The position numbers were made by a program, and so were the translations under genes. This document shows, one piece after another, positions 32,712-44,778 of a DNA stretch of 64,000 bases. Location of the stretch: assembly GCA_020348445.1 (NCBI GenBank), contig CP070751.1, forward strand, positions 2,712,750 to 2,776,749, read 5' to 3'. Positions within the stretch are counted from its first letter, which is position 1. Every line of letters begins with the position of its first letter. The notes under the pieces are model-generated. The model was not told the DNA's origin. It made no database searches and saw nothing but the letters and a program-made list of their open reading frames with translations. This DNA is from Thermoplasmata archaeon. GTDB lineage: Archaea > Thermoplasmatota > Thermoplasmata > GCA-020350865.

Positions 32712-33197
32712 CTAATATTTCCAACCTTGCTCTCTAAAGAATTCTATTAATGAAATACATTTCATATTATAATCTTTACAAACATCCGGTATTTTTGGCC
32801 GAGCAGTGGGATCAGTCCTTGGGTGTTCAGATGTTATGACTGTCCATTTTCTTGTTTTTGCTAAAGCAATTAGAAATGGATCTGCTTCTGGAATAGTCTT
32901 ATCAGGATCTATAAGTCTCTGGTATTTTGATGAAATAATACTGACTTCTTTAAGTTGTTCCTCATCTAAATCAATGAACATAGTTTTATGTTTCTTAGCC
33001 CATTCCAACATCTCATCATCAACTTTTTTAAGCTCATTATAAACTTCTTTTGGAGCGATTAATAATCTTTGTTTAATGAGAGCTTCAATATCTTTCCATA
33101 ATTTATTAAAAATATCTGGAGGATAAAATCTTCTCCATAAATCTATCAAGGCACATGTATCAATACAATAACCCTTGGTTAGCCTTGCTTGAATCAT
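32712..33197 (-). CDS. DUF4411-family PIN-like protein (putative toxin)
   Basis: YCIDTCALI..WRRFYPPDIF..LW, EVYNEL, ADPFLIALA, VITSE, KIPDVC. Confidence 0.88.
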   Translation of the reverse strand: MIQARLTKGYCIDTCALIDLWRRFYPPDIFNKLWKDIEALIKQRLLIAPKEVYNELKKVDDEMLEWAKKHKTMFIDLDEEQLKEVSIISSKYQRLIDPDKTIPEADPFLIALAKTRKWTVITSEHPRTDPTARPKIPDVCKDYNMKCISLIEFFREQGWKY

Positions 33198-34393
33198 GCA
33201 TTAACCTCAAGTAACTTCTCCACCTTAGGAAGATATTTGAGATGAATATCGAGGTAATCAGCCACATCACTGCAGGTGATCCTATCATTCTTATATGATT
33301 CTAAGACTAATGTAACGAATGGAGTTCCATTTTTTTGAATGCATTCTTTAGGCGGATCTCGCCGCCCTCCCGTTTTTTTCTCTTGCTCTCTTTTTGCTTT
33401 TGTTTCCCATTCACCATGTTTTCTTTGATAATATCTTCTCGATGTTCGCTTGAATAGGAGTAACCGCCTAAGAATCACTTCTGGACTTACATTAAAATCT
33501 TTAGCAATTTTCCCAAGGGTTCTACTAGACCATTCTTGGGGGGTGTTTATTCCCCTAACAAAGTCATGATTTAATAGATCCTCTTCGGGAACCAAAAATG
33601 AACCTGAAAAATGATTACAAAATATTTCAATTGCTCTTATTTCCCCAGATGAGGTGATGCGGTTTTTGGATTCCCAATTCTCTACTCTAATTGGATCACA
33701 TATCCCTCCCTTTTTTAAAAGAAGATGTCCGAATTCGTGCCAAAGAGAAAAGGTTCGACCTGTAATACTATCTTTTGTATTTAGAATAATAACTGGAATG
33801 TCACCATCAGTTAAAGAAAAAGCTCTTAATTCTTCGATAGGCATGGACATCTGAAATACCAACACACCGAGATTTTCAATTGACATTTTCCATTGATTAA
33901 ATGCATCAGTATGGTTCTCCCAGCTGAATTGTTGATGGACTGGGATGTTAATAATTTTCCTCACCTTCTTTGCTAAACTTTCCGGATTCGCTGAGAGTGT
34001 AACATGACCGATTTTCTTCATAATGTCGCTATGAAAATCGCTTTCTAGTTCCTTAGTCAAAGAATGAAGCCGTCTCGCTCTTCTAATTGCTAGTCTAGTT
34101 TTAGGAGAAACAGGTATTTTATCTTCTCCCGGTAATGTTCGAAAATCCTTAGGAAGCGGGGGTTCTTTTGGAGGCTCTGTTAAAAAAAACACTGCAAGCG
34201 GTCTCTTGTAATAAGTAGAAAGGGTTTTTACTTGGTTCAATGTGGGTTTTTTATCTCCCGATTCCCACATTTCTACCAGATTAGTGCTGATATTAAGCCT
34301 AGAGGCGACATCATTTATAGTCCTTCCAATACTCTCCCTTGCCCATATAAGGACCTTTGGTTTAACATCAACCTCTAAAGATTTTTTTGACAT
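33194..34393 (-). CDS. XRE-family HTH + ImmA/IrrE Zn-metallopeptidase
   Basis: LIWARES..DVASRL..WESGDKKPT HTH; FSLWHEFGH (HExxH); EIFCNHFSGSFLVP; ATG 34393 behind GGAGGG; overlaps DUF4411 by 4 bp. Confidence 0.9.
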   Translation of the reverse strand: MSKKSLEVDVKPKVLIWARESIGRTINDVASRLNISTNLVEMWESGDKKPTLNQVKTLSTYYKRPLAVFFLTEPPKEPPLPKDFRTLPGEDKIPVSPKTRLAIRRARRLHSLTKELESDFHSDIMKKIGHVTLSANPESLAKKVRKIINIPVHQQFSWENHTDAFNQWKMSIENLGVLVFQMSMPIEELRAFSLTDGDIPVIILNTKDSITGRTFSLWHEFGHLLLKKGGICDPIRVENWESKNRITSSGEIRAIEIFCNHFSGSFLVPEEDLLNHDFVRGINTPQEWSSRTLGKIAKDFNVSPEVILRRLLLFKRTSRRYYQRKHGEWETKAKREQEKKTGGRRDPPKECIQKNGTPFVTLVLESYKNDRITCSDVADYLDIHLKYLPKVEKLLEVNA

Positions 34394-34583
34394 AGCTATA
34401 TTCCCTCCAAATGCTGTTTCAGCTCCTATACACTCGGAATGGGCACACAGCTTTATCTTTTTATCGCTCCTCTCCTCAATTTGATATGTTTTTTCGCTAT
34501 AATCTGAATGCTCAAAAAAGCTATAAAATCGATTTTGGATTACCAAACCTCAACCTCATTTTAAGGCTTTGATGGGAGATACC

Positions 34584-36893
34584 TTATGTTATATCAATAG
34601 AATCAGAACCTTGACCCACTCCCAACCTGATATTATCATCATCTCTCACAACCAAAATCACTGTCCCAGGCCCTTCATATGTCAATGCAGTCGTGTCTAT
34701 GATGTCCATGGGACTTACTTTTGGTGAGGGATAGGGATCAGTATTTGGAGGATTGTTCAGGTATAAAACAGTCACGGTCTGAGTGCCATAGGAGTAAGTC
34801 AGAGTTAAATCATCACTTCCAGGTTCTGTGATATGAGAGGTAACCTCAAATGTGCATCCGATAAAATGGCTATTTAAATCCACCTCCCAGGGTTCTATGT
34901 GATTCCAGTGGTCGCTGTTTTTCTTCTTTGACTGCTGGACATTGAAGGTGTGGTGGATCTTTTTTATACTCCCGTTCTGGGATTTTAAATATATCCAGAC
35001 CGGATTACCCCCTACATTTGGCGGGTCTTCGGGTATGTAGGTAACTGTTGCGGAATATGATTTTGAAAAGTTGATGCGGACTGGAATCCAGGCCATCTGC
35101 TCGTCTGGTGAGCCTGGCAAGCGCTCAATAGAGACGTAGCCTTGGCTATTACCTTCTTCATAGAGTGTCATACTCACATTGTTGTACTTTCTACCTGCGA
35201 CTCTTAATCCTATTTCTAAATTCATGACCGCTGATTCGATGGTTGCTGTTGGGTTTACATTTACTACAGTGATGTTGCAGGTATCCATGGCTGTTAAATT
35301 ATCGTAATCTGTCACTCTCAAGGTCGCAACAAAAACACCATCATCGCCATAGATGTGGATTGGAGTTGGACCTGTTGCGTCGGGTGGTGCACCTGTTTGC
35401 CACCATAGGCCATCGCTTGAATCGAAGTCCCATTCGTAGGATTCGATTGTGCCATCGGTATCGTAGGAGGATGAGGCGTTTAGTTGGACGGGGGAGACTT
35501 CGATTATGGATTGATCTGGGCCCGCGTTGGCGATGGGTGGTATATTTGTTGATCCGATAGCATAAACATTATAATCGGTGGAACCGAAATAAATAGTTCC
35601 ATCATAATTTATTGCAGGAGAAGAGTGCAATGAAGAACCAGTTGCGAAATTCCATTTCTCGGTACCATTTGGATTGATTGCGTAAAGTATATCATCTTGA
35701 GAACCGATGTAAATAGTACCGTCGGAGCCAATTGTTGGTGATGAAGATATATAGTCATTTGTCTTGAAATCCCATTTCTTGGTACCATTTGGATTAATCG
35801 CATAAAGCTTTCCATCTAAAGAGCCCACATAAATTGTACCATCGTAACCGATTGCGGGTGACGAACGGACTGAGCCATCTGTTACGAAATTCCATTTTTC
35901 GGTCCCATCTGGATAAATTGCGTAAAGTTTATTATCGCGAGAGCCAACATAAATCGTCCCATCAGAGCCTATAGCAGGTGATGAATCTACCCATAATCCA
36001 GTTATAAAACTCCATTTTACAGTGCCATCTGGGTTAAACGCATATAATTTATGATCTTGAGAACCTACATAAATAGTTTTATCGAAATCAATAGCTGGTG
36101 ATGACGATATACGGTAACCAGTAATGAAGTTCCATTTTTCGGTTCCATCTGGATTAATTGCATAGAACTTGTGATCACTTGAACCGACGTAAATTGTACC
36201 ATCAGAGTCAATTGCAGGGGATGAACTTACACCCCAACCAGTAATAAAACGCCATTTCTCTGTGCCGTCTGGGTTTATTGCCCAGAAATAATAGTTATTA
36301 GAGCCCACATAAATTGTACCTTCAGCGCTTATTGCAGGTGAAGAGAGTATAGAACCTCCGGTTGTAAAATTCCATTTTTCGGTTCCATCTGGATTGATTG
36401 CATAAAGCTTTTTATCACCAATAGAACCGATATATATTGTCCCATCTGACCCTATAGCAGGAGATGATTCCACATTACTACCGGTTGTGAAACTCCATTT
36501 CAATTGCCCATTATTTCCACTTGTATCATATGGACTTTGACCTGTATGATTGAGATTCTGACGAAACATTGGCCATGGAGAGTTTGCGAGACCGCCTATT
36601 CCGTTGGAACTTAAACTTGTCTTTCTTTTATTTTGAGATGAGGAGCTTATAAGATCACTACTACCACTACAATTAGAAATAGGATCATTATCCTCCTGAG
36701 AAAACGAGTCTGCAAGATTCTTCGTTTCACTTGAGCTCGGATCTGAGTTACTAATATTTGGAGAAATAGGTTCGCCAAATTCTTCAGTCCCACTTAAAAC
36801 AGAACTCGAATTACTTTCATTTTGAGGGATTATCTCAAAATAATTTGTTATCATTATTGCACAAATAAATATGCTTGCAAACTTGGATTTCAT
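34584..36893 (-). CDS. Secreted 8-bladed PQQ-like (BamB-type) beta-propeller + PKD domain protein
   Basis: Eight 40-aa repeats W.F.TG..V.SSPAIG.DGTIYVGS.D.KLYAINPDGT; PPIANAGPDQ..DTDGTIESYEWDFD PKD. Confidence 0.88.
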   Translation of the reverse strand: MKSKFASIFICAIMITNYFEIIPQNESNSSSVLSGTEEFGEPISPNISNSDPSSSETKNLADSFSQEDNDPISNCSGSSDLISSSSQNKRKTSLSSNGIGGLANSPWPMFRQNLNHTGQSPYDTSGNNGQLKWSFTTGSNVESSPAIGSDGTIYIGSIGDKKLYAINPDGTEKWNFTTGGSILSSPAISAEGTIYVGSNNYYFWAINPDGTEKWRFITGWGVSSSPAIDSDGTIYVGSSDHKFYAINPDGTEKWNFITGYRISSSPAIDFDKTIYVGSQDHKLYAFNPDGTVKWSFITGLWVDSSPAIGSDGTIYVGSRDNKLYAIYPDGTEKWNFVTDGSVRSSPAIGYDGTIYVGSLDGKLYAINPNGTKKWDFKTNDYISSSPTIGSDGTIYIGSQDDILYAINPNGTEKWNFATGSSLHSSPAINYDGTIYFGSTDYNVYAIGSTNIPPIANAGPDQSIIEVSPVQLNASSSYDTDGTIESYEWDFDSSDGLWWQTGAPPDATGPTPIHIYGDDGVFVATLRVTDYDNLTAMDTCNITVVNVNPTATIESAVMNLEIGLRVAGRKYNNVSMTLYEEGNSQGYVSIERLPGSPDEQMAWIPVRINFSKSYSATVTYIPEDPPNVGGNPVWIYLKSQNGSIKKIHHTFNVQQSKKKNSDHWNHIEPWEVDLNSHFIGCTFEVTSHITEPGSDDLTLTYSYGTQTVTVLYLNNPPNTDPYPSPKVSPMDIIDTTALTYEGPGTVILVVRDDDNIRLGVGQGSDSIDIT

Positions 36894-37130: not shown

Positions 37131-38771
37131 TCACATCATAGGCGGCATTCCACCCATCCCGCCTCCACCAGGTGGCCCACCTGCAGGCATCTCTGTGTGC
37201 TTTGCTGCAATCACATCATCTATCCTTAAGATCATGGTGGCAACCTCGGTTGCAGACTCAAGAGCCTGGGTTTTTACCCTGAGTGGTTCCAGAACCTTCA
37301 TCTTTGCCATGTCAGTGACCTTTCCTGTGATGACATTTATACCTGAGTTTTTGTTCTTCGATTTTCCACCATGCGCCTTTTTCAGGTCAATTATTGTATC
37401 AATACCATCCAGGCCAGCATTTTCTGCCAGGGCTCTTGGAATGACCTCCATAGCCTCGGCAAAGGCCTCGATTGCTAGCTGCTCCCTACCTCCAACAGTG
37501 GCTGCGAACCGCCTCAGATGAATTGCAAGCTCGATTTCTGTTGCACCTCCACCTGCCACTACCTTTTGATCCTCGATTGTTACTGCCACCACCTTCAGTG
37601 CATCATGCAGGGAGCGCTCCACTTCATCTACTACATGCTCTGTTCCTCCTCTTACAAGGATGGATACTGCCTTTGGATTCTTGCAGCCCGAAACAAAAGT
37701 CATCTCGTCATTTGCCACCTTCTTTTCCTCCACATGTTTTGCTTCTCCCAGTTCCTTTTTAGTGAGTTCGTTTAGGCTGCTTACGATTTTTGCGGAAGTT
37801 GCCTTTGCCAGTTTCTTCATATCTGATTCCTTTACTCTTCTTACCGCGTATATACCCTCCTTTGCCAGGTAATGCTGGGCCAGATCATCTATTCCTTTTT
37901 GACAGAATAAAACATTGGCTTTGGAATCTTTGACTTTCTCAACCATCTCCTTTAACATTCTTTCCTCTTCATCCAGGAATTTCGAAAGTTGTGAGACATC
38001 CTCTATCTTTATCTCTGCAGAAACCTCGGTCTTTTTCACTTCCATTGCCGCATTTAACAGGGCGATTTTAGCATTTTTCACGTGCTGGGGCATCCTCGGA
38101 TGTACCCTCTCCTTATCAACGATTATCCCATTTAACATCATGGTGTCGTGGGCTGAGCCGCCGTATTTCTTTTCCACCTTAATATTATCGATATCTGCTA
38201 TAGATTTACCATCGATCTTCTCCTTTATGGCCATGACTGCCGCAACCGCGATTTGGGAAAGATGCTCGCTTGCACCTATGCTCTTTCCAGTCATGGCTGT
38301 CTTTGCTATGTCACCAAGCAGTTTCTTATCCTCAGGTGATGTTTTTATACTCATTTTTACAAGCACCTTCTTTGCTTCGTCAGCTGCCAGACGATAGCCA
38401 TTGGCAACGATTGTAGCATGAATATTTGACTCAGTGAGCTCCTCAGCTTTCTTTAAAAGCTCACCCGCTATGACAACCGCCGTGGTCGTACCATCACCGC
38501 ATTCATTGTCTTGGGTCTTGGAGACCTCTACCACCATCTTGGCTGCAGGGTGCTCGATATCGATTTCTTTTAAAATGGTTGCACCATCGTTTGTAATCAC
38601 CACATCGCCAAGACTGTCCACAAGCATTTTATCCATGCCCCTTGGTCCCAAGGTGGTTCGAACCGCGTCTGCGATTGCTTTGGCAGCCGCGATGTTGTTG
38701 GACTGAGCTCCTTTTCCTTTATCCCTTTTTGTTCCTTCCTTTAAAATTACAATGGGTGTTCCTGTCATCAT
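37131..38771 (-). CDS. ths: Thermosome subunit (group II chaperonin)
   Basis: [53 protein letters not shown] tail. Confidence 0.97.
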
Positions 38772-39123
38772 AACATTCCCTCCGACTCAAATCATTAACA
38801 TCTTTGAATTTCCGATTCTCTTGGATTTCAAGAGGGTATGATAGTTCTTCTATATATAATTTCCTTGATGGTGGGTGGATGGTTTTTATAAACGGTTTTG
38901 ATTAGTTTTCAGTCGTTGAATTGGTAATTATTTCCGCATTTAGCCCCATAAAATCGACTATTTACCAATAGAAAAATATATGAGGCAATCCAACTATTCT
39001 ATATAAATTAGTTTGTACAGGAAAAGGCTGTAAATAAACGCATAAATAGTGGGCGAAATTTATTGGCATTTTCCATTCGAATGGTGGAAAAACAATGATG
39101 TCGATTCGGGGGAGAAATGGAAA

Positions 39124-42100
39124 ATGAACCAGGGCGGTGAGAGAAAGACTCTTAAAGAGTTCCTAGAGGACCTTCCCAAGGAACCATGCTTTACTCCGCT
39201 TCCTAATCAATATTGTGTTATATGTTCAGTATCCAATAAAGATGTGGCCGAAGCATGCATAAAAAGCGGGAATATCCCTTCGAAACTTAAGGCATTGAAA
39301 AAGGATCAACTCATGGAAATCGCCGAGTGCTTTGGGCAATCCACAGAGGGATCCAAATCAGAATTGATAGAAAGGGTAATAAATGTAATTGAGGGAGCCG
39401 AGGAGGAGGTTGAAGAGGTTGCCCCTTCAGAGGAGGAGGTTGTAGAGTTCGAGGTAATGGAGGAAGGAGAGGAAGAAATCGAAAGGCCCCCTCCAACAAT
39501 GGAGAAAGAGGAAAAAGAAGAAAGGATTGCTGAAAATCCTCTTATGGAGTTTCGGGAAAACCTACCTATTGATCCGTGTTTCACACCCCTTCCAAATCAA
39601 CATTGTACAATATGTTCAATTATGAATAAAGATGTGGCCTCAAGATGTATAAAGGGTGGGCAGATACCTTCTAAACTCGCGGCTATGGAAAAGAACCAGC
39701 TAGTGGATATCGCCTCCTGTCTTGGCTTATCTTGGGAGGGAACAAATGATGATTTGATTCAAAGAATTATCACTGCATCTGAGGAAGGTGAAGTTGAATT
39801 GGAAAAGGTGGCTGAAGAAGAAGTGGAAGAGCAAGTACAAGAGGAGGAGGAAGAAGAGGTTCCAATCGAAGAGGAAGTAATTGAGGAAGAGGTTGTCGAG
39901 CCTGAAGAAGGTGGGGTAGAATTTGAATTGATGGCTGAAGAAGAAGTCGAAGAGCAGGCAGAAGAGGAAGAACCCTCGGAAGAAGAACCTGAAGAAGAGG
40001 TAGTTGAGGAACCAGAAGAGGAGGTTCCAATTGAAGAGGAAGAGGTTGCTGAAGAGGTCGAAGAGGAAGGTCCAACAGAAAAAGAAGAAGAAATTGAGAA
40101 ATCCCCTCTCAGAAAATTTCTTGACGAGCCTCCCAAAGAGCCTTGTTTTTCTCCACTTCCTAACGAATACTGCATCATATGTTCAATATCAAATAAAGAT
40201 GTTGCCTCAACATGCATAAAAGGTGGCCAAATATCATCGAAACTAAAAGCACAAAAAAAGGCTCAACTCATGGAGATTGCAGAATGTCTAAATCAATCTA
40301 CCGAAGGGACGAAGCCTGAATTGATAAAAAGAATCCTTCGTGTGTCTGGGGAAGCTGAAGAGAAGGATGAGTTGGTTGAGCCTGAAGAGGAAGAAATAGA
40401 AATCGAGGAGGAGGCAGAGGAAGGCGAGGAAGAAGTCAAAGCAGGTGAAATAGAAGAAGGAGTAAAAGAATCCCCTCTCAGAGAGTTTTTGAAAAATCTT
40501 CCCAAAGAACCGTGCTTTACTCCACTTCCCAACGATTTTTGCACCATATGTACAATTTCAAATGAAGATGTGGCCTCGGCATGTATAAAGGGGGGAGATG
40601 TGTCCTCGAAGCTCAAGCCCATGAAAAAGGCCAAGCTTATCGAAATCGCAGAGTGCCTCAGCCTCTCAATTAAGGGTACAAAATCAGATTTGTTGAAAAG
40701 GATACTTGCTCAAACGATAGAAGGTGAAGCAGAGGTTCCGGAGGAGGAATCACTTCCCTCTTTGCTTGAAGAGTTCACAGATAGGATGGAAAAGGCAGCC
40801 ATCGGGCCAAAAGAAGAAAAAGAACTGACCCTCAGGGGATTTATACTCGATCTTCCAACACAACCTTGTTTCACACCGCTTCCTGACAGCTATTGTATCT
40901 TATGCTCAAGGCTCAACAAAGAGGTTGCTGATTCATGCATAAAGGGTGGGCAGCCACTGTCGAAGCTCAAGCGTATGAAGAAGATTCATCTCATTGAAAT
41001 CGCGAGTTGCCTGGGCCTTTCCACAGATAGAACGAAGATGGAATTGGTAGAAGACATCTTGGCTGCAACCGAGCAACCCGAATTAGCTATAAGAGAGGTA
41101 AAAAAGGTAGAGGAGAAAAAAAGGATCGAAGCACCACCCGTTCCAGTGGTTGAAAAGGAAGCACCGAAGGTCATGGAAGGTGAACTGGAACTTGAATGTC
41201 CAGATTGTGGAACTTCGGTTGAGATCGATGCATCAGTGTGCCCTTCTTGTGGATTTGATTTTGCACTTGCAGAAAAGGAGGAATTGCCCGAGGAGGGGTA
41301 CGAGTGTCCAGAATGCGGCAGAATTTTTACTGAACCTGTTCCCTCTTGTCCGGATTGTGGGACCGAATTTGAAGGAGTAGAAGCATTTGAAGAGGAAGCA
41401 GAGGAGGAGCTTGAAGAGTACGAGTGCCCTGATTGCGGTTCCTTAGTCACTGTAAAGGATTCAGTGTGTCCGTGGTGCGGTCTGGAATTTGACGTGGAAG
41501 CCCGGGAAGAGGAAGTTATTGAACATGAATTTGAAGAGTTCGAGGAAGTGGGGGAAGAGGAAAGAGGTCTTGAAAGTCGTGTATCTGAGATTGGGGAACC
41601 TGAAAAAGCGGTTTTTACGGCAGGTATTACCAACGGTCTTCGCGAGGGCGAGGGTGGATTGACAAATGGCATTACCAATGGATTGAAGGTGGCCAGGCCG
41701 GGTCTCACAAATGGACTTACCAATGGCTATAGAAAGGGTAAGCCTGGTCTGACCAACGGTTTGACCAATGGCCTAACAAACGGTCTTCGAGCCTTGAAAG
41801 TGGGCATTACAAATGGATTGACCAACGGTAACGGTATTACAAACGGTCTGGGTCCTAAACGCCCTGTTATCAAGGAGAAAAGCAATAAATTGAAACTCAT
41901 TGCTGTACCGATAATACTGATTATGCTGATTTTAACTCCCTATATTATAGTGGACATGGCCGAGCCAGAAGAGCGGATTGAAATCGATGGTAGTTTCGGT
42001 GATTGGAGTGGCGTGGATAAATTCTCAGAGGAAGCCGATGTACCTCCAGAAAACATAAATGTCGATATCACCTCCTTTGGAGTTGACAGCAGGCAGCAGG

Positions 42101-44778
42101 AGCTCTCCTTCTATTTGGAGGTTAAGGGGCAAATGCTTCAAGGTGAGCCTGAAGATATTGGCAGACATATGGATACTGCCTACATTTTCATCGATGTAGA
42201 CCAATCTCAAGAATCAGGCTATCTCATAGATAATATAGGTGCAGATTACATGGTTGAGGTCGCTGGGTGGAGGGGTGAAATTTACTCACAAATTTTAAAT
42301 TCATATACAGAGGAAGTTAATGATTGGAATCTTTGGGAGTTTATTGGCCGGATTTCTGCAGATGCTTCAGACTCAAGACTTGAGGTGCAGGTTGATTACA
42401 GCGAATTGGGCATGAAGAACAATGAAAAGGTTGATGTCCTGTTCTACATGCAGGGATACGATGGATCTGAGGATTTTGCAGATACCGTGATTTCCAATGA
42501 AAAGGGAGTTTTAATTGTTAACCAACAACCATTGGGTGATTCCTTTGTAACAGGTGAGAAACAGGTTATGTTGATGCTTCAGTTGACAGCAAGAAACGAG
42601 GATATTACAGTAACTGGCATTAAGATCTCCAGAAAAGGAGTTGGCTCTGATGCTGATGTGAGTGAGGTAAGGCTCATTAGTGGTTCAACTGACAAAGGTA
42701 CATTGAACAACGGCGTGTGCGAATTCCAAACCGACATAAAACTGTCAAAGGATGTTCATGAAGCCGTGTTCGTTGAGGTTGATATAGCTCCTGCTGCTCT
42801 TGATATGGGAAGCATCGGATTTAAGGTTGATTCACCCCATGATATAACAACCAATAAAGGTACCATAACACTGAAGTCAGTGGAACCGGAATCCTATCAA
42901 TATGATATCAGCTATATCAAATCAATTCCCAAGGAAATAGTGGTTGATGGTGCATTTGCTGATTGGGAGATGATAAACAAGATTAGCGATGATGCAAATG
43001 ATGTGAATAAAGAAAACTTGAATATAAAAGAGTACGGAGTATCAAATTCATCGCAGATGGCCTCATTCTATCTAAAAGTTGATGGAAAAATGTGTTATGG
43101 GGCGGCTGTGCCGTATTGGAATTACGTGGCGGCAGCTATACCGCAAGAGCCTTCAGAGCCCGGGGAACCTGGATCTCCCGGGGAAACTCCAACTCTAAAG
43201 CCAAGAACTGGCGAGGATTTCGTGTATATTTTTATAGACAGCGACAATTTATCCACAACTGGTTACAGAATCGGTGACATGGGTGCAGATCACCTCATCG
43301 AAATCATAGGAAGGTACGGTGATATAACCTCCAGAACGCATCTGAGTTTCTTAGGCCCATCACAACATAATTGGATTTGGTTAAATGAAGGAGATGTCAA
43401 GGCAGAAACAAACAGTGCATGTTTGGAGACTCAAATCTCAGTTAGTGGGTTGAATATAACAGGGAATTTTCAGGTCTACTTTCAAACCACAGATTGGAGC
43501 AAGAGCGTATCTGATTATTCGGATGGCACGGTGTCAAGGGGAACAAGGGGAATCGTCACAATTCAGGAATTTAACGCTGCATCCATTGGAGCAACTGCAA
43601 CTTCGAATCAAAGATCCCTTATCAGAACAATAGGCCAGTCCACCAATTATTTCTTTAGTTTCTATTACAATGAAGATGTTCAGAATATTACGTGGAAATG
43701 GAGTTTGACAGGTGACGACAATCCATGGCCTAATCCCCCGCAATTTGTATTTACAGAGGCTCATCAAAACATGACAAATATATCGGTTTGGTACGATGAT
43801 ACCAATCAGAAGATATATGTTGTTGCTGATAATGATAGTGCTGACTATAATGTCACTGTTCGCAAAGGAACAATTTCTGGAAACACCATCACTTGGGGAT
43901 TTGAAGTCGATGTCAACGTATCAGCCATAGGTGTGGGAAATAAAAATGCCTTCATTTCAAGGGATGCAGATGGGCACCTCTGGGTGATATCAAGCATGAT
44001 GGAAGCAGTTGGGAATTATGGAGTTGTGGCAAATAGATCGGTGAGTCAAGATGATATTACTCAATGGCAGGTCGGTGAACCCTTGACCACATCAGCTGAT
44101 GATGATCCCTCACCAATAGACGTTTATCCCATAATCCTTTCAATAGGAACTTTAGGCGATCCAGACATGTACGCAATTTGGTATGACTCATCAGGTATCA
44201 TTCAAGGAAGACGTTATGATGGATCATCTTGGAGTGGAACTACCGATTATATTGATAATACGGGTACCGATGACGTTGATGGGCAAAAGTGGGGCCCATC
44301 TGCGGTTGTAGATTCTTCAAGTAGGGATGTCCATATTATATATGTGAACGCAACAGGGAATGTAAATTACACAAAATATAATACCGGCGGGACTTATGTT
44401 GAATCCCCAAAGACTCTCCGTTACACAGAAGCTGCTTTTCCCACTATATCATTGGTTGGATCAACTGGACTGAATGTTTATTGGATTAATGAATCAGTGG
44501 GAGGTAACAACCGGATTGAAGGTAACTCTTCAAATGATCTTGGCTCTACTTGGTCCTCAATTGTCGATTTTACCCCTGATACGTTTGCCAAACGATTTCT
44601 AACCTCCGTTTATTATGCACCAAACGAATTTTTTAGTGGATGGCATTGGACACAAAATGTGAGCAATGACAATGACGTTCTTTTTGAGCGTATTCCCGAA
44701 TACCAAGATGTTCTTATCCCGTTATTCGTAACGATTTTAATGGCAGCGGTCTGGCAAAGAAAGAGGAGAAAGTGTTAA
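39124..44778 (+). CDS. Giant membrane protein: 5x Cys5+SAP/HeH-like repeats, Glu-rich linkers, 3 zinc ribbons, TNGL repeats, TM, extracellular region, PEF-CTERM-like tail
   Basis: Uninterrupted ORF (track start 39049; ATG 39124 preferred). TM LIAVPIILIMLILTPYIIV at about 41896-41952; C-terminus IPEY..LIPLFVTILMAAVWQRKRRK. Confidence 0.8.
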   Translation: MNQGGERKTLKEFLEDLPKEPCFTPLPNQYCVICSVSNKDVAEACIKSGNIPSKLKALKKDQLMEIAECFGQSTEGSKSELIERVINVIEGAEEEVEEVAPSEEEVVEFEVMEEGEEEIERPPPTMEKEEKEERIAENPLMEFRENLPIDPCFTPLPNQHCTICSIMNKDVASRCIKGGQIPSKLAAMEKNQLVDIASCLGLSWEGTNDDLIQRIITASEEGEVELEKVAEEEVEEQVQEEEEEEVPIEEEVIEEEVVEPEEGGVEFELMAEEEVEEQAEEEEPSEEEPEEEVVEEPEEEVPIEEEEVAEEVEEEGPTEKEEEIEKSPLRKFLDEPPKEPCFSPLPNEYCIICSISNKDVASTCIKGGQISSKLKAQKKAQLMEIAECLNQSTEGTKPELIKRILRVSGEAEEKDELVEPEEEEIEIEEEAEEGEEEVKAGEIEEGVKESPLREFLKNLPKEPCFTPLPNDFCTICTISNEDVASACIKGGDVSSKLKPMKKAKLIEIAECLSLSIKGTKSDLLKRILAQTIEGEAEVPEEESLPSLLEEFTDRMEKAAIGPKEEKELTLRGFILDLPTQPCFTPLPDSYCILCSRLNKEVADSCIKGGQPLSKLKRMKKIHLIEIASCLGLSTDRTKMELVEDILAATEQPELAIREVKKVEEKKRIEAPPVPVVEKEAPKVMEGELELECPDCGTSVEIDASVCPSCGFDFALAEKEELPEEGYECPECGRIFTEPVPSCPDCGTEFEGVEAFEEEAEEELEEYECPDCGSLVTVKDSVCPWCGLEFDVEAREEEVIEHEFEEFEEVGEEERGLESRVSEIGEPEKAVFTAGITNGLREGEGGLTNGITNGLKVARPGLTNGLTNGYRKGKPGLTNGLTNGLTNGLRALKVGITNGLTNGNGITNGLGPKRPVIKEKSNKLKLIAVPIILIMLILTPYIIVDMAEPEERIEIDGSFGDWSGVDKFSEEADVPPENINVDITSFGVDSRQQELSFYLEVKGQMLQGEPEDIGRHMDTAYIFIDVDQSQESGYLIDNIGADYMVEVAGWRGEIYSQILNSYTEEVNDWNLWEFIGRISADASDSRLEVQVDYSELGMKNNEKVDVLFYMQGYDGSEDFADTVISNEKGVLIVNQQPLGDSFVTGEKQVMLMLQLTARNEDITVTGIKISRKGVGSDADVSEVRLISGSTDKGTLNNGVCEFQTDIKLSKDVHEAVFVEVDIAPAALDMGSIGFKVDSPHDITTNKGTITLKSVEPESYQYDISYIKSIPKEIVVDGAFADWEMINKISDDANDVNKENLNIKEYGVSNSSQMASFYLKVDGKMCYGAAVPYWNYVAAAIPQEPSEPGEPGSPGETPTLKPRTGEDFVYIFIDSDNLSTTGYRIGDMGADHLIEIIGRYGDITSRTHLSFLGPSQHNWIWLNEGDVKAETNSACLETQISVSGLNITGNFQVYFQTTDWSKSVSDYSDGTVSRGTRGIVTIQEFNAASIGATATSNQRSLIRTIGQSTNYFFSFYYNEDVQNITWKWSLTGDDNPWPNPPQFVFTEAHQNMTNISVWYDDTNQKIYVVADNDSADYNVTVRKGTISGNTITWGFEVDVNVSAIGVGNKNAFISRDADGHLWVISSMMEAVGNYGVVANRSVSQDDITQWQVGEPLTTSADDDPSPIDVYPIILSIGTLGDPDMYAIWYDSSGIIQGRRYDGSSWSGTTDYIDNTGTDDVDGQKWGPSAVVDSSSRDVHIIYVNATGNVNYTKYNTGGTYVESPKTLRYTEAAFPTISLVGSTGLNVYWINESVGGNNRIEGNSSNDLGSTWSSIVDFTPDTFAKRFLTSVYYAPNEFFSGWHWTQNVSNDNDVLFERIPEYQDVLIPLFVTILMAAVWQRKRRKC
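39151..41067 (+). repeat. Five about 79-aa intragenic domain repeats (starts 39151, 39541, 40108, 40477, 40831)
   Basis: Consensus L.EF...LP..PCFTPLP..YC.IC...N.DVA..CIKGG...SKLK..KK..L.EIA.CL.LS..GTK..L..RI. Confidence 0.9.

Follow-up and report, generated by a model that had tools for sequence, protein, structure and literature searches.

What does a giant archaeal membrane protein do with five copies of a cysteine-rich, SAP-like repeat at one of its ends? The question is raised by a gene on the forward strand (39124..44778) of a 64,000-nucleotide (nt) stretch of contig CP070751.1 from a Thermoplasmata archaeon (assembly GCA_020348445.1, contig positions 2,712,750 to 2,776,749), here called the window, in whose numbering coordinates are given unless another locus is named. 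The gene encodes 1884 amino acids (aa) from its ATG; residue numbers below are those of the GTG-started translation P0001. An earlier note on this DNA, made from the sequence alone, had read the repeats as a novel array of zinc-SAP modules that faces the cytoplasm and links nucleic acid to the envelope. Here, we find that each repeat consists of two separable parts, an N-terminal mini-domain with four conserved cysteines (Cys4) and a C-terminal SAP/helix-extension-helix (HeH) domain, and that the array heads one member of a family of giant envelope proteins. Its most plausible role, in our tentative view, is that of a multivalent head that would bind nucleic acid.

The motif P-C-F-x-P-L-P occurs five times in the protein, and cutting 81 residues around each occurrence yields a gap-free alignment of five repeats that are 53-68% identical and share 28 invariant columns. 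On the plus strand, these modules lie at 39145..39387, 39535..39777, 40102..40344, 40471..40713 and 40825..41067, each of them identified by the motif, the alignment and a hidden Markov model (HMM) of the repeat. The fifth is nearest to the membrane and is the positional orthologue of the last or only module in relatives. In a whole-genome search, every copy matched the repeat HMM at E 1e-42 to 1e-46 and the repeats are therefore far past chance, so that the five tandem units first noticed in the sequence are real, at 81 aa each instead of about 79. Their cysteines are spaced C-x8-C-x2-C-x10-C, with a fifth following after x23; each repeat also holds a conserved N-terminal helix (L-x2-F-L-x2-L-P), and a fixed C-[IV]-K-G-G junction joins the Cys4 half to the SAP half. 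There is no tandem repeat at the DNA level, and pairwise synonymous divergence (dS) between the copies is saturated or undefined, which together rule out recent slippage as their origin. Nonsynonymous divergence (dN) is 0.2-0.45 and dN/dS comes to ~0.1-0.3 in both halves of the repeat, which marks the copies as old and under purifying selection. A word-index homology search with the head (aa 26-700) returned nothing, probably because its Glu-rich stretches swamp the words, and an exhaustive HMM search was used instead.

The C-terminal half of the repeat was suspected of being SAP/HeH-like from its residue pattern, and both profile and predicted fold confirm it. PF02037 (SAP) matches the giant protein in three stretches at 44.9 bits against a cut-off of 23.9 (E 7.9e-12) and reaches 68.8 bits on the orthologue P0002; one repeat taken alone scores 18.6 bits, under the cut-off. 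Searched against PDB sequences, a 16-module profile matches the SAP domains of DEK and rice SIZ1 and the Rho N-terminal domain, always over columns 44-80. The SAP consensus is present, including the basic K-L-K-x-x-K-K stretch and the G-T-K loop, and the net charges of the five SAP halves are +1, -1, +5, +6 and +3 from module 1 to module 5.

An AlphaFold2 model of module 4, built with the module alignment, has a mean pLDDT (predicted local distance difference test) of 76, rising to 81-87 in the SAP half, which is predicted to fold as helix, extended loop and helix (residues 43-81, that is, the 37-40 C-terminal residues). The comparison with SAP and LEM structures that the earlier note had proposed was made with this model, and the list of matches is almost purely SAP/HeH. 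Against solved SAP, Rho-N and LEM domains, superpositions of the predicted half cover 33-40 residues and deviate by 0.6-1.6 A: 0.6 A (34 residues) for MKL1 SAP, 0.7 A (34 residues) for 3'hExo SAP, 0.9 A (35 residues) for Tho1 and 1.0-1.4 A for Rho-N, with Ku70 at Z 4.1, further matches to Hcc-1, FAN1 and PIAS1, and emerin LEM only weakly (Z 2.4-2.8). The E-values and Z-scores of these fold matches are low because the domain is tiny. Among the matched structures are SAP domains solved as DNA binders or in DNA-bound complexes, namely the Ku70 C-terminal domain, FAN1, DEK on the nucleosome and the S/MAR-binding 1h1j.

The Cys4 half, by comparison of sequences, is a lineage-specific, previously unnamed mini-domain separable from SAP. 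As in the earlier note, it could be assigned to no named family: searches of Pfam and NCBIfam with E allowed up to 5 found none, it has no PDB sequence match (the module profile found the SAP half only), and nothing usable came from the ESM Atlas. Predicted alone (45 aa, 18-row alignment), it reaches a pLDDT of 80, with a helix at residues 2-8, a loop, and helices at 21-30 and 32-36; no chain among 48,161 representatives matched this model at Z >=2 and Foldseek found none, so small a domain being hard to match. Across 18 modules, which diverge down to 38% identity, F6, P11, P14, C15, L19, C24, C27, N31 and C38 are invariant. The original description of a Cys5 module stands within this protein, where all five cysteines are invariant, and fails outside it: orthologous repeats have S, A or K in place of the fifth, which sits in SAP helix 1. 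We therefore rejected the fifth cysteine as a metal ligand and take the putative metal site to be Cys4, a half that is slightly acidic and probably binds zinc, less likely an iron-sulfur (Fe-S) cluster.

The distribution of the module is very narrow. Searching 1.84 billion representative proteins with the repeat profile, a check suggested along with the original description, gave 23 matches, and overall some 17 of these representatives are counted as having the Cys4 half. Only two of the matches contain the Cys4-SAP module in full: P0002, with five intact modules and one degenerate, and the fragment P0003. About 13 of the 23 match columns 2-56 only (mostly 3-38), always at protein residues 6-65, and the rest are plain SAP proteins. 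Proteins of the Cys4-only kind are acidic and look disordered; they contain short conserved motifs and patches rich in Lys, most have one or two zinc ribbons, and a poly-Lys tail is frequent. One of them, the single-copy 798-aa protein P0016, is encoded in the window's own genome (L007:4251-6647, plus strand; G000:C1:5059250-5061646) and bears the Cys4 module alone at its N-terminus; the rest of it has the acidic, disordered-looking character, the short conserved motifs and the Lys-rich patches just described, together with a single zinc ribbon and a poly-Lys tail. Its family is also found in genomes G002, G003, G005 and G006 and in about 12 metagenome proteins. In a sample of 401 genomes of the GTDB class, six were matched by the Cys4 profile (5 of 6 genomes in the window's order, 1 in another family), and the profile found no match in G001, a single-contig genome of the same genus.

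Orthologues of the giant protein occur in metagenome-assembled genomes (MAGs) labelled Thermoplasmata archaeon, flanked as in the window by a thermosome gene upstream and a GT4 glycosyltransferase gene downstream. Their heads vary: the G002 orthologue has one Cys4-SAP module and that of G004 at least six, the G001 orthologue has one SAP and no Cys4, and a related G003 protein combines many zinc ribbons with one SAP, again without Cys4, so that module number among close relatives is 0, 1, 5 or at least 6. The proposal of a single zinc-SAP unit does not survive these cases, given that Cys4 stands alone elsewhere and SAP stands without it in G001 and G003. A tree of 18 modules unites the membrane-proximal ones from four genomes in a single clade (support 97/92) and groups the distal ones by genome, the window's own modules 1-4 together (89/89) and those of G004 and P0002 partially. 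This grouping is most simply read as a single ancestral module beside the ribbons that was then amplified independently, or evolved in concert, lineage by lineage. The repeated amplification of distal modules points to selection for multivalency, and module copy number thus seems to be under selection. As a separate observation, P0002 (L019:3444-7182) was called as two genes and has a +1 frameshift in its LTNG tract, which turns LTNGLTNG into ...DKWFDKWS; this may be an error of sequencing or a genuine break in a tract prone to repeats.

Between the repeats lie acidic, Glu-rich linkers of 37-108 residues with net charges of -9 to -58, much as first described, and the head as a whole carries a net charge of -132. 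It is followed by the three CxxC...CxxC zinc ribbons that had also been recognised (41191..41484, plus strand, as are all features of the gene; aa 715-812), on which PF13248 scores 52.8 bits in three stretches against a cut-off of 27 (aa 714-811), an assignment that applies to the ribbons and not to the Cys4 halves of the repeats. A short acidic stretch then leads to a basic juxtamembrane tract of 11 [LIV]TNG units (41599..41889, net +10), common to the paralogue family described below, and to the first transmembrane (TM) helix (41890..41952, aa 948-968), which has basic residues before it and acidic ones after. The acidic outer region that follows, the predicted large external part, measures 916 aa. 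It comprises a conserved module with two I-x-I/V-D-G-x-F-x-D-W units (41953..43548; hereafter the ecto-module), shared with the paralogues and with giant Thermoplasmata and Altiarchaeales proteins, and a distal ectodomain (43549..44700) that matches no Pfam family; a PDB sequence search with the ectodomain returned noise only.

A single TM helix had been proposed; the protein in fact ends in a second hydrophobic segment, preceded by IPEY and followed by KRRKC and the stop codon (44701..44778). This C-terminal anchor looks PEF-CTERM-like by its sequence, although the PEF-CTERM model (TIGR03024) does not match the tail and NCBIfam gives only a weak Heimdall-CTERM match (E 0.048). Elsewhere in the genome, an exosortase/archaeosortase-like gene (L033; G000:C1:2831815-2832513, minus strand) matches the archaeosortase C model at E 1e-12, under the curated cut-off, the best match to that model in the genome being 49 bits against 100; judging from this similarity, its product is a candidate for the enzyme that would process the family's PEF/PEY tails. 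The charges are basic before the first TM helix, acidic after it and basic again (KRRK) after the last hydrophobic segment, and this positive-inside pattern at both segments places both termini inside and the large middle outside. Charge distribution thus supports a cytoplasmic head, as the earlier note had it, in a protein anchored at both ends, and the many Cys4 sites of the head fit a reducing cytoplasmic location.

By its sequence, the giant protein is a paralogue in a lineage-expanded and so far undescribed family of giant Thermoplasmata envelope proteins. The ecto-module (taken as the first 540 residues of the outer region) is 25-49% identical, at E 1e-161 to 1e-26, to 27 giant proteins of 1,060-3,078 aa from Thermoplasmata, one Altiarchaeales MAG and unnamed metagenome contigs, which otherwise contain S8 peptidase, FG-GAP, lamin-tail, LamG and TPR domains. 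Within this genome it is found in 19 open frames of 1,040-4,377 residues, some of which run into masked (N) stretches, and is 40-53% identical to about 19 paralogues (for example G000:C1:4372477-4378788, 4359091-4364103 and 3423525-3430217), as well as to MAG proteins annotated as S8 peptidase or lamin-tail-domain protein. Most of the paralogues have zinc ribbons, an xTNG tract and a TM helix directly ahead of the ecto-module, and most tails read [IL]PE[FY] (for example, IPEF or LPEF), hydrophobic segment and Lys/Arg. The shared chassis, as far as sequence comparison defines it, is therefore a variable cytoplasmic head, zinc ribbon(s), the xTNG tract, a TM helix, the 540-aa ecto-module, variable distal domains and a PEF-like anchor. 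The heads include HhH domains in two paralogues (HHH_5 at 33.6 and 44 bits, cut-off 27), a wHTH in one (HTH_24 and HTH_5, both above their cut-offs), TPR domains, many ribbons (up to nine zinc ribbons) and KaiC-like domains, the last visible by sequence and in precomputed Pfam lists. Within this genome, the Cys4-SAP array is confined to the one paralogue studied here. Literature searches on SAP in archaea, prokaryotic helix-extension-helix domains and giant surface proteins of Thermoplasmata found no description of such a protein.

SAP domains as such are no rarity in the class, where 45 of 151 sampled genomes have at least one above the Pfam cut-off, usually one to three per genome, rising to three to eight in the window's genus. 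This genome encodes three further SAP-domain proteins. In two of them the domain is C-terminal, namely in an RDD-family membrane protein, which carries it on a Pro-rich tether, and in a double-AAA ATPase; the third is a coiled-coil protein with three SAP domains (loci L032:1461-2258, L031:5009-7000 and L030:3503-6001, all on the minus strand). From its domain order, the RDD-family protein is a second example of a SAP domain hung on a membrane protein.

The open frame of the giant gene spans 39049-44778 and begins at a GTG (39049). Its first in-frame ATG, at 39124, is preceded by a purine-rich GGGGGAG 9-15 nt upstream and by a TATATAAA box near 39001, and the orthologues start a few residues ahead of their first repeat; for these reasons ATG 39124, the start given from the outset, is the likely start codon. 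Minus-strand open reading frames within the coding region (for example, 39759-40217 and 40986-41723) were taken as by-products of its GAA-rich coding strand. Upstream lies a divergent thermosome gene (37131-38771, minus strand), and downstream the GT4 glycosyltransferase gene; both neighbours are kept in close relatives only, and a functional link to the thermosome gene was accordingly given no weight. An L10e gene, two genes downstream and past the GT4 gene, is regarded as there by chance, and none of the neighbouring genes examined encodes a KaiC or wHTH protein. Two other features of this part of the window deserve mention in their own right: a gene for a 769-aa protein with a PQQ-type beta-propeller and a PKD domain (34584-36893, minus strand), which adjoins the thermosome gene and probably encodes another surface protein, and at 32712-34546 (minus strand) an HTH_3 and M78 (ImmA/IrrE-type) peptidase gene followed by a DUF4411/PIN-like gene, a pair that looks toxin-antitoxin-like or defence-like.

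What, then, might the array do? Judging from sequence and models, we favour, tentatively and in the knowledge that it may well prove wrong, a multivalent nucleic-acid-binding head that would couple the envelope to the nucleoid or to gene control. The SAP beads would bind nucleic acid, most probably double-stranded DNA, multivalently and with low specificity, drawing avidity from their number, and at least the three basic, membrane-proximal beads (modules 3-5) would take part. The acidic linkers, of up to 108 residues, would act as spacers that hold the beads tens of nanometres off the membrane and apart from each other, and the surface protein would thereby be physically coupled to the nucleoid or pass information to it. 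The Cys4 half, in its probable zinc-bound form, might buttress, stabilise or regulate the adjoining SAP domain, or alternatively recruit a partner shared with the Cys4-capped acidic protein. In favour of such a head speak the SAP assignment by profile and fold, the invariance of the four cysteines, the charge pattern that puts the head inside, purifying selection on both halves of the repeat, the repeated amplification of distal modules, the HhH and wHTH heads of paralogues, the SAP heads without Cys4 in relatives and the SAP domain of the RDD-family membrane protein. A more specific version, in which the surface protein would hold the nucleoid or particular DNA at the envelope through an independently amplified, metal-dependent Cys4-SAP array and so serve as an archaeal membrane-chromosome tether, draws indirect support from the HhH and wHTH heads and is weakened by the TPR and KaiC-like ones and by the acidity of the head; taken as a claim of its own, we consider it unlikely.

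Several points weigh against a nucleic-acid-binding head. It is strongly acidic, and SAP modules 1 and 2 are neutral to acidic; the matches to the SAP fold include an RNA binder (Rho N-terminal domain) and protein binders (the p53-binding domain of PIAS1, and MANF with BiP); DNA binding is not a theme of the whole family, because other heads are TPR or KaiC-like and thus of the protein-interaction or ATPase kind; and the Cys4 module is dispensable, because the complete genome G001 of the same genus lacks it. Model confidence, moreover, is moderate (pLDDT 76-80), and the binding is itself a prediction from sequence and fold. An alternative is a protein-recruiting scaffold that would build up an assembly beneath the surface protein: its Cys4 and SAP domains would dock proteins of the cytoplasm, such as those of chromatin, chaperones or signalling ATPases, and bind no nucleic acid. 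The TPR and KaiC-like modules of paralogue heads, the occurrence of Cys4 in an acidic disordered protein with many conserved short linear motifs, the slight acidity of the Cys4 halves and the protein-binding SAP folds among the structural matches (PIAS1 with p53, MANF/CDNF with BiP, LEM with BAF) all agree with such a role. Yet the sequence fits the SAP consensus, basic stretch and G-T-K loop included, HhH and wHTH heads occur among the paralogues, and the gene neighbourhood points to no partner, the thermosome and GT4 genes being kept in close relatives alone; we regard a scaffold as possible and rather doubtful.

The layout of a cytoplasmic head of DNA-binding type, one TM helix and a large outer domain is also that of membrane-bound one-component transducers such as ToxR and CadC, in which the ectodomain would sense a signal and the head would alter transcription while tethered or after proteolytic release, and one paralogue does have a wHTH head. 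However, we know of no SAP domain that acts as a sequence-specific operator binder, and five copies on long linkers argue for avidity rather than specificity; with no KaiC or wHTH gene flanking the locus and neither a protease site nor a partner protease identified, a role of this sort appears quite improbable. The arrangement of the conserved cysteines (Cys, CxxC, Cys in a helical mini-domain) recalls the C...CxxC...C of WhiB and is unlike the paired knuckles of the same protein's zinc ribbons, and an anaerobic lifestyle is plausible for relatives recovered from sediment and MAG samples, so that the Cys4 half might carry an Fe-S cluster whose state modulates the neighbouring SAP domain in response to redox conditions or oxygen. 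We rate such a sensor as a long shot, since Cys4 zinc sites are far commoner in modules this small, neither fold nor sequence matches WhiB or any Fe-S protein, and the locus offers no Fe-S assembly context. Finally, the beads might bind RNA and so keep mRNA or ribosomes at the membrane, close to where giant surface proteins are inserted. The closest fold matches do include RNA-bound SAP/HeH domains, namely those of Rho, of Tho1 and of 3'hExo with the histone mRNA stem-loop, but the protein shows no RNA-specific feature and its locus no link to translation or secretion genes beyond the chance L10e gene, and this is the explanation to which we give least credence.

Set against known systems, what is new here is the combination of a small Cys4 module with a SAP array, the SAP family itself (SAF-A, Ku70, PIAS, DEK, Tho1, MKL1) being already known. 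The repeat's 37-40 C-terminal residues score and fold as SAP, whereas what sets the giant protein apart from known SAP proteins is that an archaeal membrane protein here bears five copies at its cytoplasmic end, each behind a Cys4 module that those proteins lack. With the LEM/HeH nuclear-membrane proteins (Heh1/Heh2/Src1, MAN1, LAP2, emerin) it shares a HeH module on the nucleic-acid side of a membrane protein. Its membrane part and body are unrelated to theirs, however, its 916-aa ectodomain belongs to another family, its array is multi-copy with a putative metal module, and no MSC (MAN1-Src1 C-terminal) domain is found anywhere in it at Pfam E up to 1; as our comparison has it, the protein is not a member of that family and resembles it in layout only. 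ToxR and CadC are likewise bitopic, with a cytoplasmic N-terminus of DNA-binding type and a large outer sensing domain, whereas a Pfam scan finds no OmpR-type winged helix in the giant protein, which is far larger, anchored at both ends and headed by a multi-copy, non-specific DNA-binding-type region. From the other giant Thermoplasmata surface proteins, whose chassis it shares, it differs by its Cys4-SAP array.

The protein bears on how archaeal chromosomes are positioned relative to the envelope and on whether events at the cell surface are connected to the nucleoid. The significance of the present case is bounded by an uncultured organism, a small lineage, a SAP domain common in the class and a function that is deduced. 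Within those bounds, it provides a well-defined 81-aa module that can be cloned and may bind DNA at a membrane in a metal-dependent way, and a new, very narrowly distributed Cys4 mini-domain that has been shuffled and amplified within one genus. Were the protein indeed a membrane-chromosome tether, prokaryotes would have a functional counterpart of the HeH/LEM proteins of the eukaryotic inner nuclear membrane, and Cys4, as a new metal-binding fold, would gate or strengthen the binding of SAP to DNA. Considered together with its HhH- and wHTH-headed paralogues, the protein suggests that the whole family of giant surface proteins may reach nucleic acid inside the cell.

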